Shown: piece after piece, positions 1-4,829 of the stretch | Numbering within the stretch: the stretch's first letter is position 1 | Layout: every line of letters starts with the position of its first letter | Origin: a virus | Taxonomy: Duplodnaviria > Heunggongvirae > Uroviricota > Caudoviricetes | Reading direction: 5' to 3' (one strand) | DNA: 4,829 nt | Virus record (IMG/VR): IMGVR_UViG_2579778982_000027 | Notes under the pieces: model-generated | Told to the model about the DNA's origin: nothing | The model's input: the letters and a program-made list of their open reading frames with translations, nothing else | The model's database searches: none | Translations under genes and position numbers: made by a program

Positions 1-13
1 TTTCATACGATAG

Positions 14-45
14 TGTCCATTAAAAATGATGGACATTATTTTTGT
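14..45 (+). terminator. Candidate rho-independent terminator for plus-strand transcription entering from the left
   Basis: Perfect 7-bp inverted repeat TGTCCAT (14-20) / ATGGACA (29-35) with an 8-nt loop, followed on the plus strand by TTATTTTTGT (36-45). Stem is short and AT-rich, so weak. Confidence 0.3.
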
Positions 46-85
46 AGAGCCGGAGGAAACAGACCAGACGGTTTAAATGAGCCGG

Positions 86-190
86 TTACTCTAATGCATC
101 AGCAGGCCATGTTCCATTTACTTCATAAGTGTTTTTTAAATTAACAGCATAAAAAGCATTTTCCGAAGGGGAATAAATATATTGATTCAT
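86..190 (-). pseudogene. Tail-fibre assembly protein (Tfa) N-terminal stub, truncated after 34 codons
   Basis: Hand translation from ATG at 190-188 gives MNQYIYSPSENAFYAVNLKNTYEVNGTWPADALE, then TAA at 88-86. The FYS..NAFY...L...YE..G.WP.DA.E pattern matches the N-terminus of phage Tfa chaperones as I recall them (normally about 180-200 aa). None of the three downstream frames continues a Tfa-like sequence. Confidence 0.5.
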
Positions 191-191
191 A

Positions 192-581
192 TTATCTTCC
201 TATTGCGATAATCATAGTTCCATACAAACCATTTCCGGTTGATACTTTTAAGGTTACTGATGTCCTTGTTGTCGTGTACCCCATAAGTTTAAAGGTCGGA
301 GCAGCGGTTAATGAGCCATCTGACCATAAGGCACTAACAGCCAGTGCGCCTGAAGGAAATGCAATAGGGAAATTACCTGTAGTTCCGTTAGTGTCCGCCC
401 CATAAACATTCATCGAAAACATTTGGACAATATGACCACTTGGTAACTGAAACCAGTTTTTGCCAGATGGAAATGCAGACATATCTGGTATCTGATTTTC
501 CCCTGTTCCCACATTCCGTTTTGCCGCTTCTCCCAAACCAACGTTTAAGAAAATGCAGAGATTACGGCTAACTGGCATCAT
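192..581 (-). CDS. Phage tail-fibre protein, C-terminal variable (receptor-binding) domain fragment
   Basis: 129-aa ORF whose N-terminus carries LNVGLGEAAKRNVGTGENQIPDMSAF, the conserved constant/variable junction motif of side tail fibres in Mu/P1/e14-type invertible systems (from memory). Its 5' end faces the invertase start, as stfE faces pinE in e14. An in-frame TAA (591-593) lies just upstream, so no constant N-terminal fibre portion is attached in this orientation. Confidence 0.6.
   Translation of the reverse strand: MMPVSRNLCIFLNVGLGEAAKRNVGTGENQIPDMSAFPSGKNWFQLPSGHIVQMFSMNVYGADTNGTTGNFPIAFPSGALAVSALWSDGSLTAAPTFKLMGYTTTRTSVTLKVSTGNGLYGTMIIAIGR
528..553. other. Candidate hix/gix/cix-like 26-bp crossover site for the invertase
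   Basis: TTCTCCCAAACC-AA-CGTTTAAGAAAA: two imperfectly inverted 12-bp half-sites around a 2-bp core, with the AAACC/NN/GTTT centre typical of Hin-family sites (consensus half-site roughly TTATCAAAAACC). It lies in the codons for the junction motif (IFLNVGLGE), 55 bp before the invertase ATG. Match to consensus is partial, about 10/12 and 8/12 per half. Confidence 0.3.
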
Positions 582-608
582 CCCCGGTTTTTATTCAGGG
601 GATCCATC

Positions 609-1208
609 ATGCTTATTGGCTATGTCCGCGTATCAACAAATGACCAGAATACAGAATTGCAGCGTAACGCGCTGGAGTGCGCAGGATGTGAACTGATTTT
701 TGAAGATAAAATCAGCGGAACGAAATCAGCCAGACCGGGATTGAAAAAACTGCTCAGAACGCTATCAGAAGGAGATACGCTGGTTGTCTGGAAGCTGGAC
801 AGACTGGGCAGAAGTATGAAACACCTGATCACGCTTATTGAGGAATTGCGGGAAAAAGGTGTTAATTTCCGTAGTCTGACGGACAGCATTGACACATCAA
901 CACCCATGGGGCGTTTCTTTTTTCACGTCATGGGAGCTTTAGCCGAAATGGAACGTGAATTAATTGTAGAGCGTACACTGGCCGGGCTGGCAGCAGCACG
1001 CGCACAAGGACGCATTGGCGGACGTCGCCCGAAGTTGACAAAAGAACAACACGAGCAAATAGCGAGGCTGATTAAAAACGGTCATGACAGGAAACAACTG
1101 GCGATCATTTACGACATCGGCATATCGACGATTTATCGTTATCACCCTGTAGGCGATATACAGGCTGAAGAAACAATCAGGCAGATTCAGGAAAATGAAA
1201 ACCGCTAA
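609..1208 (+). CDS. Serine site-specific DNA invertase, Hin/Gin/Pin/Cin family
   Basis: 199-aa ORF with family hallmarks: MLIGYVRVSTNDQ (catalytic Ser in VRVST), LVVWKLDRLGRS, SLTDSIDTS, MGRFFFHVMGALAEMERELIVERT, GRIGGRRPKL and a C-terminal HTH (LAIIYDIGISTIYRY). Closely resembles Pin/Gin as I recall them. SD-like AGGGGA sits 6 nt before the ATG. Appears intact. Confidence 0.95.
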   Translation: MLIGYVRVSTNDQNTELQRNALECAGCELIFEDKISGTKSARPGLKKLLRTLSEGDTLVVWKLDRLGRSMKHLITLIEELREKGVNFRSLTDSIDTSTPMGRFFFHVMGALAEMERELIVERTLAGLAAARAQGRIGGRRPKLTKEQHEQIARLIKNGHDRKQLAIIYDIGISTIYRYHPVGDIQAEETIRQIQENENR

Positions 1209-1230
1209 TCTGACCATTAGCGGTTTTGCG
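1197..1230. terminator. Bidirectional rho-independent terminator between the convergent invertase and U genes
   Basis: Perfect 11-bp inverted repeat AAACCGCTAAT (1199-1209) / ATTAGCGGTTT (1216-1226) with a 6-nt loop CTGACC. T-run follows on the plus strand (GGTTTTG) and an A/T-rich run on the minus-strand side (TTTCATTTTC). It overlaps the invertase stop codon (1206-1208) and lies just 3' of the U stop (1235-1237). Confidence 0.6.
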
Positions 1231-1234
1231 TTAA

Positions 1235-1729
1235 TCAAAACAGCCCTTTAACGGAGCTGGCCGCGCTGTTAAGGGATGATGTGACCTTATCTTTGAAGCC
1301 GGACAGCATATCACTGAACGATGAGGATTGCAGGCGCTCCCGCAAATCCTCATCACAGCGTTCAAGAGTCAGTGAAAATTCTATCTTTTTCGCCTTACCG
1401 TAGCGATCAAACTCGGAGCGGGTCGTATTCGTTTCAGTCAGTACATACATGCCGTAAATCTGTCCGACGCCATCAATCAGAGGCCAGGGGCGTCCTGTAT
1501 ACGCCTGCGTGGTCAGCAGCGACAGCGACACTTCGCCACCTGTGATTTCAGGATAAAGCACACCAGAAAGCACGATGCGATCATCGCCTGCCCCGATATA
1601 CTGCCAGCTTGCTGAACGGTTAACGCGTTCATTTTTCACATGCCGCCAGCTTTTATTTTGCTGTAACTGCTGATGCGGCAATGTGCGCAGCTCAAAAACA
1701 AACATGCCGTAGATCATCATCATGGCCAT
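1235..1729 (-). CDS. gpU: Phage tail protein U (P2 gpU-like)
   Basis: 164-aa ORF directly after T; start region overlaps the T stop (TGA 1736-1738) with a GGAG just upstream. N-terminus MAMMMIYGMFVFELRTLPHQQL...SWRH resembles P2 gpU as I recall it, and size is typical. True start may be one of the later in-frame ATGs (1723 or 1720), which have better spacing from GGAG. Confidence 0.8.
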   Translation of the reverse strand: MAMMMIYGMFVFELRTLPHQQLQQNKSWRHVKNERVNRSASWQYIGAGDDRIVLSGVLYPEITGGEVSLSLLTTQAYTGRPWPLIDGVGQIYGMYVLTETNTTRSEFDRYGKAKKIEFSLTLERCDEDLRERLQSSSFSDMLSGFKDKVTSSLNSAASSVKGLF

Positions 1730-1735
1730 GACTCC

Positions 1736-4579
1736 TCAATCTTTATCGTAAAAACTGCCACGTCCGGCACGGTCGCGTCGTTCCAATTCTGCCCTGACCA
1801 TTTCACCGACCAGTTTCGCCAGTTCGCGGGGATTCTGCGTAACAACGTTATGCAGATGAACATGAATTTCACCGCCAAATCCGGAGACAACAGGCTCCCG
1901 GTTACGGGAAGTTGCAGGAACTGATGCCACTGGCGATCGTATGGCCTCCGCCACCGGGCGGGAGCTGGCCGCAACAACAGGGACCAGCGCCGGAGGCAGA
2001 GGAGTCGGGACCACGGGTGTGATGTTGATTGCGGAAGCAGGCTTACTGACCTGCGCAATCTTCCGCTCCTGCCACTCCCCACGAACAGCAAGTGCGCGGG
2101 GCAGGTTCTTAAAGACAATATCGCCGGGGCCAATGCGTTTTTTCGTCTCATCAACCAGCTTACCTGTGTTATCAGCAATTTTGCTGAGTCTGCGTAGCGT
2201 ACCGGTATTGCTGTCTGTGAGCGGTTTGTTGTCTTTGGGTTTATCACCTCCGGTGCCATTGCCATTTTCCACAGGCTTCGGCGGATTGATTTTCGCCAGG
2301 TCCCCCTGAAGCAAGGCAACCTTGTCCTGAAGAATGGCCGCACGCTGTGCGTCTTCGATTTTCTTGCGCGCCCTTTCAGCTTCATCCGGAAGGACGCCAA
2401 GTTTTTCAAGTATCCACGCCAGCGTATCCAGTAGCATTTTTGCAGGCATCAGAACAAGCTGTAACGCACCGCCAAGAACGTTACCGAATATCTCGCCAGC
2501 ACTGGTACATTTATCCAGCGTTTCCTTGCTGGACTCCATCGGTGACAGCAGCGATTTAAACCAGTTAAACACCTGGCTGATCCCGCTTCCGATTGCGTCA
2601 AAAACAGGACCAAACCGTTCAAAAGTTTCGCGCAACGGGGCCAGCCTTTCCATAATCCCGCTGAACACCCCGGCAAAAAATGCCCTGATGGGATCCCAGT
2701 ATTTCCAGATAAGAACGGCAGCTCCGGCAAGCGCAGCCACGATAAGACCAACCGGACTGAACAGCGCCCCGATAGCACCCCCCAGCAAAGAAACGGAACC
2801 CGTCACCATTCCCCATAGTGCTGGCAGGAGCCTGACAGCATTCATTGATCCGGTCAGGAGGGAAAAACCAAGACGCAGTTTTGCCAGTGGGCCAGCAAGC
2901 ACACCAAGAGCAAGCGACAACGAGCCTACGGTTGCAGTCACTGCCAGCAGCGCACCGCCTGCAATCAGTAGCTGGCGCGTCAGTACAGGATGGGCCTGCG
3001 CCAGTGCCGTCACCTTTGAGACCACCCGCGTTAGCCACTGCGTGACAGAACGCAGCGGACCGTCAATCAGATCTGCAATGCGGATGCGCAACCCTTCCCA
3101 TGCACTGCCGAGTGATTTCAGATCGCCGTCAAGGTTGTTGGCCATAACCTTTGCCGTGCGCTCAGCCTCACCGCGCGCGCCTTCAAGTTCTTTTCTCAGT
3201 TTAGGTAAGGAGCCGTCACCTGCCGCATCAACGAGGGCCATAAATGATGTGAAAGCCTCTTCTCCGGCAATGTCCTTAAAGAACGATACCCGGTCAACTT
3301 CCCCGTATTTGCGGGTGGCTTTATAAAGGTCGGCCAGCAAATCCTCCATCGGGCGCATTTTGCCGTTCGCATCAGAGACGGACACGCCCAGCTCTTTCAG
3401 AGCTTCTGCCGCCGCCTTTGGCGGTGATGCCAGACGAGCCAGGCTGGCACGCATTGCCGTCCCGGCATCACTTCCCCTGATACCCATATTCGCCAGTACG
3501 CCCGCCATCGCTGCGGCCTGCTCCAGCGATATTCCCAGCTTGCCCGCCACCGGACCTGCATATTTCATGGTTTCACCCAGTGCGCGAAGGTCAGTGTTGG
3601 TACGGGTAAACGCTGCGGTAAGTGTGTCACCGACCCGGTCCATCTGGTCAGCAGAAAGGCCGAACTGCGTCAGGATATTTGAGCCAATATCCGCCGTCTC
3701 GCCGAGATCCATACCGCCAGCCGTTGCCATGCTCAGCACGCCGGGAAGCGCAGCCTGAATGGCCTGCGGAGTAAAACCAGCCATTGCAAGAAATGCCTGC
3801 CCACTGGCGGCATCGCCTGCGGTGAACTGCGTTTCAGAGCCAAGTTTTAACGCCTGCTCACGCAGCGCCTTAAACTGCGGGCTGTTTTTGTCGATTCGCG
3901 TCAGTGCCTGAACGCGGGACATCTCTTTCCCGAACCCGATCGCAGGCTGCAAAAAACGCCCGGCAGCATAGCCGCCCGCAGCTGCCGCACCAATTGCCAG
4001 CGCACCACCTGTTTTCAGTTTTCCCGCTGTTTCCTGTGCGCGCGAATACCGCTCACGCGCCCGCGTTACACGCGCAAGCGCCTGCCGTTCGCGTTCAAGC
4101 TGGTTGTTGTACTGTTCGGTGCGTCTGATGGCCTGCTGGATGGTGTTATCGCTGCCTGTCAGGGAAATGCCGTGGCGTTTCAGCTCTCCGCCAAGCTCCC
4201 GCATTTTCTGAATTTCCCGTGTGCGCGATTCATTCAGGCGTTCAAGCCGGGTGCTTAACTGCTGCATCAGCTTTTGTTGTTTTTCGCTGAGCACTGTACC
4301 CGTGCGTTGTAACTGATTAAGGGCGTTAAGCTGGCGTCGTGCTTTCACGATACCCGCATCCGCTTTACTGACAGCGTCGCGGGCGCGCTCAAATGAACGC
4401 GCCTGACGCTCGAGATTTTTGATCGCCCCCTGCGTTCGCTGGATGGAGTCACCAAACTGCCCCATCAGGCGGCGTGCGTTTTCTGCAGGTCGGGTCAGCC
4501 TGTCAACGGCGCTGAAAGCGACCCGGATATCAAGAGTCTTCATTGTCTGCATTCCCGCTGCGAAGTGCCGCCCGCTCAC
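1736..4579 (-). CDS. gpT: Phage tail tape-measure protein (P2 gpT-like)
   Basis: Single long ORF (947 codons from GTG at 4579). Coiled-coil-rich charged N-terminal third, a central TQFTAGDAASGQAFLAMAGF-type tape-measure core, long Gly/Ala/Leu hydrophobic segments around residues 530-630, and position between chaperone E/E' and U. The first codon is GTG; in-frame ATGs at 4552 and 4543, the latter with GGGA about 9 nt upstream, make 1736..4543 (935 aa) a plausible alternative. Confidence 0.9.
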   Translation of the reverse strand: MSGRHFAAGMQTMKTLDIRVAFSAVDRLTRPAENARRLMGQFGDSIQRTQGAIKNLERQARSFERARDAVSKADAGIVKARRQLNALNQLQRTGTVLSEKQQKLMQQLSTRLERLNESRTREIQKMRELGGELKRHGISLTGSDNTIQQAIRRTEQYNNQLERERQALARVTRARERYSRAQETAGKLKTGGALAIGAAAAGGYAAGRFLQPAIGFGKEMSRVQALTRIDKNSPQFKALREQALKLGSETQFTAGDAASGQAFLAMAGFTPQAIQAALPGVLSMATAGGMDLGETADIGSNILTQFGLSADQMDRVGDTLTAAFTRTNTDLRALGETMKYAGPVAGKLGISLEQAAAMAGVLANMGIRGSDAGTAMRASLARLASPPKAAAEALKELGVSVSDANGKMRPMEDLLADLYKATRKYGEVDRVSFFKDIAGEEAFTSFMALVDAAGDGSLPKLRKELEGARGEAERTAKVMANNLDGDLKSLGSAWEGLRIRIADLIDGPLRSVTQWLTRVVSKVTALAQAHPVLTRQLLIAGGALLAVTATVGSLSLALGVLAGPLAKLRLGFSLLTGSMNAVRLLPALWGMVTGSVSLLGGAIGALFSPVGLIVAALAGAAVLIWKYWDPIRAFFAGVFSGIMERLAPLRETFERFGPVFDAIGSGISQVFNWFKSLLSPMESSKETLDKCTSAGEIFGNVLGGALQLVLMPAKMLLDTLAWILEKLGVLPDEAERARKKIEDAQRAAILQDKVALLQGDLAKINPPKPVENGNGTGGDKPKDNKPLTDSNTGTLRRLSKIADNTGKLVDETKKRIGPGDIVFKNLPRALAVRGEWQERKIAQVSKPASAINITPVVPTPLPPALVPVVAASSRPVAEAIRSPVASVPATSRNREPVVSGFGGEIHVHLHNVVTQNPRELAKLVGEMVRAELERRDRAGRGSFYDKD

Positions 4580-4748
4580 GCCAGCTAACCACTTCGCCGG
4601 GCGTCATCATGAAGATTTCGGCGGGCGACCAGTTAAAAATAACGGCAATATCTGCCACAAAGTCTTCTATGTGCTCAAAGCACACAACCGTGATCAGGCT
4701 TCCGTCGCCTGTTCGTTCTTCCCGCCAGAGTCCGCACCGCTCAAAAAA
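4530..4748 (-). CDS. E' extension of tail assembly chaperone (E+E' -1 frameshift product, gpE+E'-like)
   Basis: The -1 frame relative to E stays open from the slippery site to TGA at 4532-4530 (ERCGLWREERTGDGSLITVVCFEHIEDF...NADNEDS) and overlaps the start of T, as in P2 E/E' and lambda G/GT. Stand-alone initiation at ATG 4766 is not required. Confidence 0.55.
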   Translation of the reverse strand, partial: FFERCGLWREERTGDGSLITVVCFEHIEDFVADIAVIFNWSPAEIFMMTPGEVVSWRERAALRSGNADNEDS

Positions 4749-4829
4749 TTTACGGCAACCACACATAACTGAATAAAGTCACGGGATGCCATTTTTTTGA
4801 TCGTCACTTCATCCAGTCGCGGTGATGTC
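4694..4829 (-). CDS. Tail assembly chaperone E (gpE-like), 3' portion; 5' end lies beyond the window
   Basis: Frame is open from the window edge (...TSPRLDEVTIKKMASRDFIQLCVVAVNFLSGADSGGKNEQATEA) and ends at TGA 4696-4694. It is the short ORF immediately upstream of the tape-measure gene and carries the slippery heptamer. Confidence 0.6.
   Translation of the reverse strand, partial: TSPRLDEVTIKKMASRDFIQLCVVAVNFLSGADSGGKNEQATEA
4742..4748 (-). other. Slippery heptamer T_TTT_TTG for programmed -1 ribosomal frameshift
   Basis: On the minus strand the E zero-frame reads AAT TTT TTG (plus 4750-4742). The X_XXY_YYZ heptamer TTTTTTG places the -1 frame onto GAG CGG..., which is the E' ORF. Same heptamer class as reported for the P2 FETUD operon (from memory). 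Confidence 0.55.

Follow-up and report, generated by a model that had tools for sequence, protein, structure and literature searches.

The locus raises the question of whether the two overlapping reading frames that lie between its tube and tape-measure genes are joined by a programmed -1 ribosomal frameshift. The window, which is the whole 4,829-nt stretch of DNA analysed, comes from a P88-like (Xuanwuvirus) prophage of E. coli. It is very probable that the locus is a P2-like myovirus cassette in which E and E+E' are made by programmed -1 ribosomal frameshifting. The features of the cassette and of the neighbouring tape-measure gene are given in Table 1.

Table 1. Position and basis of each feature in the window
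Feature	Coordinates	Strand	Basis
gpE-type tail assembly chaperone gene, 3' end (45 codons and TGA)	4694..4829	-	Translation; P2 gpE homology
Upstream in-phase heptamer A_AAT_TTT	4745..4751	-	Codons GTA AAT TTT; overlaps T_TTT_TTG
P2-type in-phase heptamer T_TTT_TTG	4742..4748	-	Codons AAT TTT TTG; same sequence and phase in P2
E' extension, 70 codons after the putative slip (ERCGLWREER...GNADNEDS), stop TGA 4532-4530	4530..4742	-	-1 frame; PHROG 1756; P2 E' alignment
Phage_P2_GpE domain (Pfam PF06528) within the E' extension	4551..4658	-	Residues 29-64 of the 70-aa extension
Stand-alone 51-codon GTG-start E' ORF ('GpE family phage tail protein')	4530..4685	-	Database annotation (PGAP, P88 record)
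Tape-measure gene T, 935 codons, ATG 4543-4541	1736..4543	-	PGAP and P88 record agree on start

Two overlapping frames next to the tape-measure gene

By translation, a gpE homologue lies on the minus strand, and the window holds its final 45 codons. From position 4828 the zero frame reads ...DFIQLCVVAVNFLSGADSGGKNEQATEA and ends at TGA 4696-4694. Gene E begins beyond the edge of the window, at the equivalent of position 5059, and the full gene of 121 codons was taken from a prophage locus that is 99.9% identical (the JP538 prophage, L001). The zero-frame product aligns with P2 gpE (BLASTP 5e-12, residues 23-107). It also matches PHROG 103 at 3e-35, and P2 gpE is in the same PHROG at 6e-45. Against Pfam PF10109 (Phage_TAC_7) the E part scores 17.2 bits, which is below the cut-off of 25, but it covers profile positions 2-78, the same as P2 gpE (47.8 bits). 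No model in NCBIfam matches E, E+E' or even P2 gpE. On these sequence similarities, the zero-frame product is a P2 gpE homologue.

The -1 frame of the minus strand is open from 4778 through the stop TGA 4532-4530 and reads ...KFFERCGLWREERTGDGSLITVVCFEHIEDFVADIAVIFNWSPAEIFMMTPGEVVSWRERAALRSGNADNEDS. The E' extension matches PHROG 1756 at 6e-39, the PHROG that also holds P2 E', and the PF06528 match in this -1 part has a score of 47.4 bits (cut-off 23, E = 1.3e-12). When the fused product is compared with P2 gpE+E' (8e-26, 31% identity), the alignment covers both parts and is continuous through the junction, with VNFL here and VGFL in P2 in register. Searched by sequence against solved structures, the fusion gave only a chance match (E = 0.86) and no detectable relative. 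The 176-aa E+E' sequence is absent from a collection of 15 billion proteins, which is an effect of annotation only.

The end of E' overlaps the start of T by 14 nt. A longer GTG-start T ORF can be drawn from 4579, but it reflects the longest-ORF rule only. In both the JP538 prophage and phage P88 the genes run sheath, tube, E, E', T, U. A promoter and terminator scan of the region from FI to T gave nothing above the shuffled expectation. The sequence-only reading had placed the zero-frame stop at 4694-4696 and had a -1 ORF running on to 4530-4532 across the start of T. Both positions hold on the minus strand; what that reading took for the zero-frame ORF is correct at its stop, but is only the 3' part of a gene whose 5' end lies beyond the window.

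Slippery heptamers at the junction of the frames

The TTTTTTG at 4748-4742 is divided by the zero frame as AAT TTT TTG, which is the X_XXY_YYZ phase. The proposal that T_TTT_TTG is positioned so as to join the two frames is therefore borne out as far as phase is concerned. The same proposal assumed a single heptamer and overlooked A_AAT_TTT, which is also in phase and begins three nucleotides upstream. TTTTTTG occurs 4 times in the window where 1.8 occurrences are expected, and the heptamer alone is thus not rare. With the amino-acid sequence and the local codon usage fixed, ~7% of synonymous resamplings produce an in-phase heptamer at V-N-F-L, and ~16% produce one somewhere in the last 28 codons. 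Because of these chance rates, the heptamer at a single locus is not significant by itself. It is conservation across homologues that lifts it above chance.

Conservation was scored in 162 homologous loci, chosen by E' homology. A script found an in-phase heptamer in 159 of them. On inspection of those it missed, L027 has the heptamer in phase, which brings the count to 160/162 with intact frames. The heptamer is also in phase in L142, but there E' carries an indel, and in L022 E and E' are fused in one frame. The codon before the Phe codon ends in T in 97/97 distinct contexts, even though the residue that it specifies varies among G, N, P, D, Y, S and I. Phe is encoded by TTT in 87 of the 97 contexts and by TTC in the other 10, which are only those that form C_CCT_TTC. 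The codon after Phe is TTG in 84/97, a codon that accounts for 7% of the Leu codons elsewhere in E, and ATG is found in this place only where A_AAT_TTT precedes.

Most homologues carry T_TTT_TTG only. The Xuanwuvirus phages phiSM and 503458 have the same two frames with a slippery site at the same column, and together with 28 other loci they read GTA AAT TTT ATG, in which A_AAT_TTT is the sole canonical heptamer left. L111 reads likewise and differs from the 84-nt context in the window by that one T-to-A change. In the Klebsiella clade, which includes phage ST16-OXA48phi5.4 (Reipivirus), the same two frames have C_CCT_TTC at this column in place of T_TTT_TTG. Since different heptamers (T_TTT_TTG/A/C, A_AAT_TTT and C_CCT_TTC) occupy one column, the selection is for slipperiness and not for a particular sequence. 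Sequence identity among homologues within each frame is less informative. Over the overlap of 15 codons the mean pairwise identity is 0.57 in the -1 frame, 0.38 in the zero frame and 0.53 in the unused third frame, which does not discriminate among them; the case for the -1 frame is made only from its freedom from stops and from the ER-GDG motif.

Stimulated bacterial -1 frameshift sites of the dnaX or IS3 type have a conserved hairpin or pseudoknot 5-9 nt downstream of the heptamer and/or an upstream Shine-Dalgarno-like element. The single sequence folds with z = -2.85, yet the window has just one strong local hairpin, starting ~55 nt downstream. The consensus fold of 10 diverse homologues has no structure near the slip site, and only 4 weak pairs ~90 nt away. 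A downstream RNA stimulator was rejected on these two grounds. In the 20 nt upstream of the heptamer (TGTGTGGTTGCCGTA...) there is no GGAG, AGGA or GAGG, and an Rfam scan of the whole window gave no matches at E <= 1.

In the proposed mechanism, most ribosomes would finish at the zero-frame TGA and produce a 121-aa tail assembly chaperone. A minority would slip back one base on A AAT TTT TTG (4751-4742), with no RNA stimulator taking part. On T_TTT_TTG the slipping tRNAs would be tRNA-Phe and tRNA-Leu, as in P2; on A_AAT_TTT they would be tRNA-Asn and tRNA-Phe, and either or both of the sites may be used. The predicted junction peptide is DFIQLCVVAVNFLER for the former and DFIQLCVVAVNFFER for the latter. 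Ribosomes that slip would read 70 further codons in the -1 frame to give a 176-aa E+E' with a C-terminal GpE domain, terminating 11 nt into the tape-measure gene. On the lambda gpG/gpGT model, the tape-measure protein T may be coated by E and by the E part of E+E', and the E' domain may recruit the tube protein. The fixed ratio of E to E+E' that the slip would set may then govern tail assembly.

Which heptamer may be used, and other possible routes to E'

The same mechanism could operate with the productive slip mainly on A_AAT_TTT, which is compatible with the main explanation and is a serious, although not the favored, possibility. The junction would then be ...VNFF-ERC and not the ...VNFL-ERC expected from T_TTT_TTG. 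Loci in which a change of TTG to ATG has left only A_AAT_TTT argue for this choice, and one of them, phiSM, is described as an active, plaque-forming phage (PMC6456863). The single T-to-A difference in L111 points in the same direction. PMC4066793 ranks the H_HH.U_UU.Y class, to which A_AAT_TTT belongs, among the top heptamers for efficiency in E. coli, and U_UU.U_UU.G is missing from those that it rates as efficient in reporters there. This absence leaves some doubt about the exact slip site. However, these reporter rankings come from another sequence context. P2 has GGT TTT TTG with no upstream alternative, and it is both annotated and reported as shifting there. The majority of homologues also have T_TTT_TTG as their only heptamer, and a contribution from both sites is possible.

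A more tentative suggestion is that A AAT TTT TTG is a tandem double slip site, an intermediate in the turnover of slip sites at which both heptamers are usable. T_TTT_TTG may be ancestral and A_AAT_TTT newer, and sister lineages may since have fixed A_AAT_TTT alone (phiSM) or C_CCT_TTC (Klebsiella Reipivirus). If this is true, two E+E' isoforms would be made that differ at residue 106 (Leu or Phe), and the total shift rate might be higher.

It is unlikely that the cassette is a dead remnant within a decaying prophage, with an inherited heptamer that is no longer expressed or needed. The window does begin with an IS66-family end (positions 1-89), and the phage DNA that starts at the 89/90 boundary has a tail-fibre assembly gene truncated by it after 34 codons. 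The prophage may therefore be defective outside the cassette. However, none of E, E', T and U is broken. The region shares 99.9% identity with the JP538 prophage, and the cassette, compared over 430 nt, shares 99.8% with P88, which is an inducible, plaque-forming phage (PMC5285337). The interrupted gene is moreover an alternative copy in an invertible segment and is not necessarily essential. The earlier suggestion that the tail module was functional at least recently fits the intact genes and the identity to P88, but it has to be qualified by the broken tail-fibre assembly gene.

It is highly improbable that E' is an independent small gene with a GTG start of its own at 4685, in which case the heptamer would be irrelevant. 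PGAP and the P88 record both annotate such a 51-aa 'GpE family phage tail protein', and the closest clades have GTG or TTG at that column. However, the 20 nt upstream of the GTG contain no Shine-Dalgarno sequence, and the Klebsiella clade reads GTT GCG at the start column. From the heptamer on, the homologues keep the -1 frame free of stops; ahead of the GTG it codes for a conserved ER-GDG stretch, a region in which the third frame has stops in 7 of the 8 sequences compared. The constraint at the heptamer column acts at the nucleotide level, which also argues against a separate gene, as does the P2 product, given as E+E' in PMC3091744. The stand-alone ORF is most likely an annotation artefact of an unmodelled frameshift.

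The T tract at the junction has six residues, which is short for efficient polymerase slippage. Fusion by RNA polymerase slippage on this T6, which would yield mRNAs minus one U with no ribosomal shift, is an established way of making fusions of this kind (PMC5009743) and has the homopolymeric tract in its favor, but it is the least credible of the alternatives: functional relatives have T4 (AAT TTT ATG) or T3 (CCT TTC TTG) with the tandem-slippage heptamer always in phase, and the phase-specific third-base T of the preceding codon matters for re-pairing of tRNA and not for a polymerase.

Relation to P2 and lambda, and what the cassette means

The closest well-described system is that of P2. 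Both E and E' are homologous to those of P2 and belong to the same Pfam and PHROG families, and the T_TTT_TTG has the same sequence and phase and the same position between the tube and tape-measure genes. The P2 record annotates a -1 shift at the homologous TTTTTTG (GGT TTT TTG). According to PMC3091744, which cites Christie et al. 2002, a shift at TTTTTTG in P2 yields an E of 91 aa and an E+E' of 142 aa, with no structure downstream. No conserved downstream RNA structure is present in either phage, and in both E' finishes only a short way into T, 8 nt in P2 and 14 nt here. The two cassettes differ in several details. E has 121 aa here, with ~20 extra N-terminal residues, compared with 91 aa in P2, and the identity of the fused products is only 31%. 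P2 has 6 zero-frame codons after the heptamer and 15 are found here. The E+E' of 142 aa in P2 compares with 176 aa here, where the linker is 10 residues longer. P2 has GGT where this cassette has the second, overlapping heptamer A_AAT_TTT. P2 also has one FETUD operon, whereas here FI-FII-E-T-U are on the strand opposite D and the baseplate genes, beside a DNA invertase gene.

The cassette also resembles lambda G/GT, which likewise has two overlapping ORFs between the major tail (tube) and tape-measure genes and a -1 slippery site. The lambda heptamer is G_GGA_AAG, which differs from the T_TTT_TTG and A_AAT_TTT found here, and lambda is a siphovirus whereas the present phage is contractile-tailed. 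Sequence similarity between the two cassettes is not expected. Work on G/GT (Levin 1993; Xu, Hendrix and Duda 2004, 2013 and 2014) is reviewed in PMC5009743. In that work the chaperone attaches to the tape-measure protein and the extension to the tube protein, with chaperone and extension both absent from virions. The logic is the same as that proposed here, and no stimulator is required. The review also reports that P2-like phages shift with an efficiency 2- to 3-fold higher. The view of the locus as the chaperone recoding device of long-tailed phages, which the sequence-only reading had put forward from the examples of lambda G/GT and P2 E/E', is supported by the P2 homology of both parts, the gene order and the conserved heptamer. 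The two checks that this reading had set itself, similarity of the zero-frame product to gpE-type chaperones and a slippery heptamer at this position in homologous loci, both turned out to support it.

The cassette carries an ordinary, well-known P2-type frameshift signal that is unmarked as such in databases for P88-like prophages. It leaves the current understanding of tail assembly and recoding unchanged. No frameshift is annotated in the records of P88, phiSM, 503458 and ST16-OXA48phi5.4. The main value of the finding is in annotation, since P88-like prophages are present in hundreds of E. coli genomes in which RefSeq and GenBank treat E' as a gene in its own right, 51 aa long and with a GTG start. 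Recognition of the frameshift would give the correct proteome for a widespread prophage family, and the cassette would serve as an easy marker for tail modules that are intact. The exchange of one heptamer for another at a fixed column is also a small natural experiment on which motifs are sufficient for unstimulated -1 frameshifting in enterobacteria.

Frames and heptamers of the E/E' cassette

All features of the cassette lie on the minus strand of the window. The zero frame reads TSPRLDEVTIKKMASRDFIQLCVVAVNFLSGADSGGKNEQATEA from 4828 and stops at a TGA (4696-4694, minus strand). The -1 frame is open from 4778, reads ...KFFERCGLWREERTGDGSLITVVCFEHIEDFVADIAVIFNWSPAEIFMMTPGEVVSWRERAALRSGNADNEDS and stops at a TGA at 4532-4530 on the same strand, and stops are abundant in the third frame of the region. 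Since the zero-frame codons at the slip site are AAT TTT TTG, the heptamer TTTTTTG is in the X_XXY_YYZ phase, and since the tape-measure ORF begins at ATG 4543, the -1 frame terminates 14 nt into T. A sequence-only reading had claimed an E/E' programmed -1 frameshift cassette at 4530-4829; on direct reading, its coordinates for both frames, the stops, the heptamer and the overlap with T are all correct, which confirms the frames and the in-phase heptamer. Its T_TTT_TTG was right, but it overlooked a second heptamer, A_AAT_TTT, which overlaps the first in phase because the run is A AAT TTT TTG. Only the last 45 codons of E are within the window; the complete zero-frame product, read from the prophage locus of E. 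coli JP538 (L001), has 121 aa. An ORF finder lists a T start at GTG 4579 (947 aa), which is a consequence of the longest-ORF rule only and was rejected in favor of the annotated start.

Features of the window
Feature	Position	Strand	Remarks
TTTTTTG heptamer	4748-4742	-	zero-frame codons AAT TTT TTG
Second in-phase heptamer A_AAT_TTT	4751-4745	-	overlaps T_TTT_TTG
Stand-alone E' ORF, 51 aa, GTG start	4530-4685 (L001 10441-10596)	-	RefSeq (PGAP) and P88 GenBank record
Tape-measure gene T start	ATG 4543	-	annotated start, agrees with P2 layout; 935 aa; 11 nt upstream of E' stop
DNA invertase	609-1208	+	part of Mu/P1-style invertible tail-fibre segment, 192-1208
Alternative fibre C-terminus	192-581	-	part of Mu/P1-style invertible tail-fibre segment
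IS66-family element terminus	1-92		P88-like prophage homology starts at 90; many E. coli copies, annotated as tnpA start, match it at 100%

Homology to P2 and gene order

The P2 annotation has E (91 aa), E+E' (142 aa, with a -1 shift at the join) and T, and the P2 slip site GGT TTT TTG has the same heptamer in the same phase as T_TTT_TTG here. When the products were aligned to P2, the E part alone gave 5e-12 and the conceptual 176-aa fusion gave 8e-26 (31% identity to P2 E+E'). The alignment of the fusion spans the junction, where VNFL is paired with VGFL. For the -1 part, Pfam PF06528 (Phage_P2_GpE) gives 47.4 bits (cut-off 23). The E part scores 17.2 bits against PF10109 (Phage_TAC_7), below the cut-off of 25, and the match covers the profile positions that P2 gpE (47.8 bits) also covers. 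Both parts share PHROG families 103 and 1756 with their P2 counterparts. These similarities support an assignment of the locus as the P2 E/E+E' cassette. Compared with P2, both E and the linker are longer, the zero frame runs on for 15 codons past the slip site instead of 6, and there is the additional overlapping heptamer.

Positions 90-4829 are 99.9% identical to the JP538 prophage, and ~616 complete E. coli genomes carry at least 80% of the window. Over the cassette, identity to Escherichia phage P88 (Peduoviridae, Xuanwuvirus), an inducible phage that forms plaques (PMC5285337), is 99.8%. Along this strand the prophage and P88 both have, in this order, sheath, tube, a 121-aa 'tail protein', a 51-aa 'GpE family phage tail protein', tape measure and a gpU-like protein, with the DNA invertase and tail-fibre cassettes on the far side of the tail block. 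E, E', T and U are intact, the 5' part of E being read from JP538. In P88-like phages the FI-FII-E-E'-T-U block is between the invertase and D (L001 7146-13988) on the strand opposite to D, the baseplate and the fibre genes, whereas P2 has one collinear FI-FII-E-T-U-D operon; therefore, the gene arrangement suggests that the block must be transcribed from a separate late promoter that is divergent from D.

Beyond the window, inspection by eye showed a GC-rich hairpin, GGCGGCGCAGTGCGCCGCC, in the gap that separates the stop of the tube gene from the start codon of E (L001 10990-11015, minus strand). This hairpin may act as an attenuator, or as an mRNA-stability element that separates tail genes of high expression from those of low expression. 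The IS66-family end, at 1-89 outside the P88-like homology, truncates a minus-strand tail-fibre assembly gene (ATG 190, stop after 34 codons). The invertible segment also holds an alternative assembly gene. An 18-nt inverted repeat with 94% complementarity (L001 4600-4617 and 6438-6455) is a candidate crossover site; its right arm, at 527-544, lies within the fibre ORF, and the partner site is in the main fibre gene.

Conservation of the slip site

The heptamer at this locus alone is no more than chance, and the comparative evidence is decisive. The window contains TTTTTTG 4 times, against 1.8 expected. When synonymous codons were resampled with the protein sequence fixed, ~7% of trials had an in-phase heptamer at V-N-F-L and ~16% had one somewhere within the last 28 codons of E. 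The comparison set (n=162) consisted of P2, the extended window and 160 loci from one-genome-per-species bacterial contigs and IMG/VR, for which E' homology was the criterion of choice and the heptamer played no part. A scripted scan of the 162 picked up an in-phase heptamer at this column, and two open frames, in 159; inspection added L027, an in-phase T_TTT_TTG where a long open -1 frame had misled the script. In L142 (1700-1932), an IMG/VR contig, the heptamer is in phase and an indel inside E' leaves the GpE domain in the zero frame, after the stop of E. In L022 (1464-1896), from the degenerate insect symbiont Candidatus Symbiopectobacterium, E and E' share one reading frame across the T6 run, so the fusion is permanent. 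Decay or errors in sequencing probably account for these two anomalies. In all 97 distinct 84-nt contexts, T is the third base of the codon that precedes Phe, whichever residue that codon specifies (G, N, P, D, Y, S or I). Phe itself is written TTT in 87 contexts and TTC just in the 10 with C_CCT before it. TTG follows in 84 contexts, while its share of the Leu codons in the remainder of these E genes is 7%. This pattern indicates that the column is under phase-specific nucleotide selection, the requirement of a tandem-slippage site. The claim of a cassette as in P2 is thus upheld by the homology of both parts, the gene order and the heptamer kept in relatives.

The heptamer at this column varies between genera. 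Citrobacter phage phiSM, phage 503458 (375-392 in both loci) and 28 other loci have GTA AAT TTT ATG, which destroys T_TTT_TTG and leaves A_AAT_TTT as the sole heptamer; phiSM is reported to be fully functional and to form plaques (PMC6456863). One IMG/VR locus (L111) matches the 84-nt context of the window but for a single T-to-A change, that in GTA AAT TTT ATG. The Klebsiella Reipivirus clade has C_CCT_TTC (430-450 in the ST16-OXA48phi5.4 locus), and a few Yersinia, Serratia and Edwardsiella loci have T_TTT_TTA or T_TTT_TTC. In E. coli reporters, H_HH.U_UU.Y heptamers, including A_AA.U_UU.U and C_CC.U_UU.C, are among the most efficient, and U_UU.U_UU.G is not listed among these (PMC4066793). 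Therefore, the slip here may use T_TTT_TTG, A_AAT_TTT or both. It is possible, if somewhat doubtful, that the upstream A_AAT_TTT is the main site; the products of the two sites differ at residue 106 only (Leu or Phe). The turnover of the slip site is a minor curiosity.

RNA downstream of the site is more stably folded than shuffled sequence (z = -2.85), with the sole strong hairpin beginning ~55 nt downstream. A consensus fold of ten diverse homologues had no structure near the slip site, there is no SD-like element upstream of the heptamer, and Rfam gave no match. P2 and its Burkholderia relatives are likewise reported to have no stimulator structure at the site (PMC3091744).

Expression of E' and predicted role

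PGAP annotates E' as starting independently at GTG 4685. This start is unlikely, since it has no Shine-Dalgarno sequence and is not kept in the Klebsiella clade, and the -1 frame is open from the heptamer on, with a conserved ER-GDG stretch in its product. Transcriptional slippage as the source of the fusion is at odds with relatives that have just T4 or T3 at the column and still always have a ribosomal heptamer. E' is without any annotation in the phiSM and ST16-OXA48phi5.4 records, and the P88 (PMC5285337) and phiSM papers do not discuss frameshifting in E/E'. In a 15-billion-protein collection, E and stand-alone E' are each on ~1000 contigs and the exact 176-aa fusion does not occur. The cassette is of a well-known kind, and this instance was previously unannotated.

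In lambda the ratio of the short chaperone to its frameshifted form is ~30:1, and P2-like phages shift 2- to 3-fold more (PMC5009743). By analogy with lambda G/GT, the slip would set the E:E+E' ratio, E and the E part of E+E' would coat the tape-measure protein, the E' domain would recruit the tube protein, and neither product would end up in the virion.
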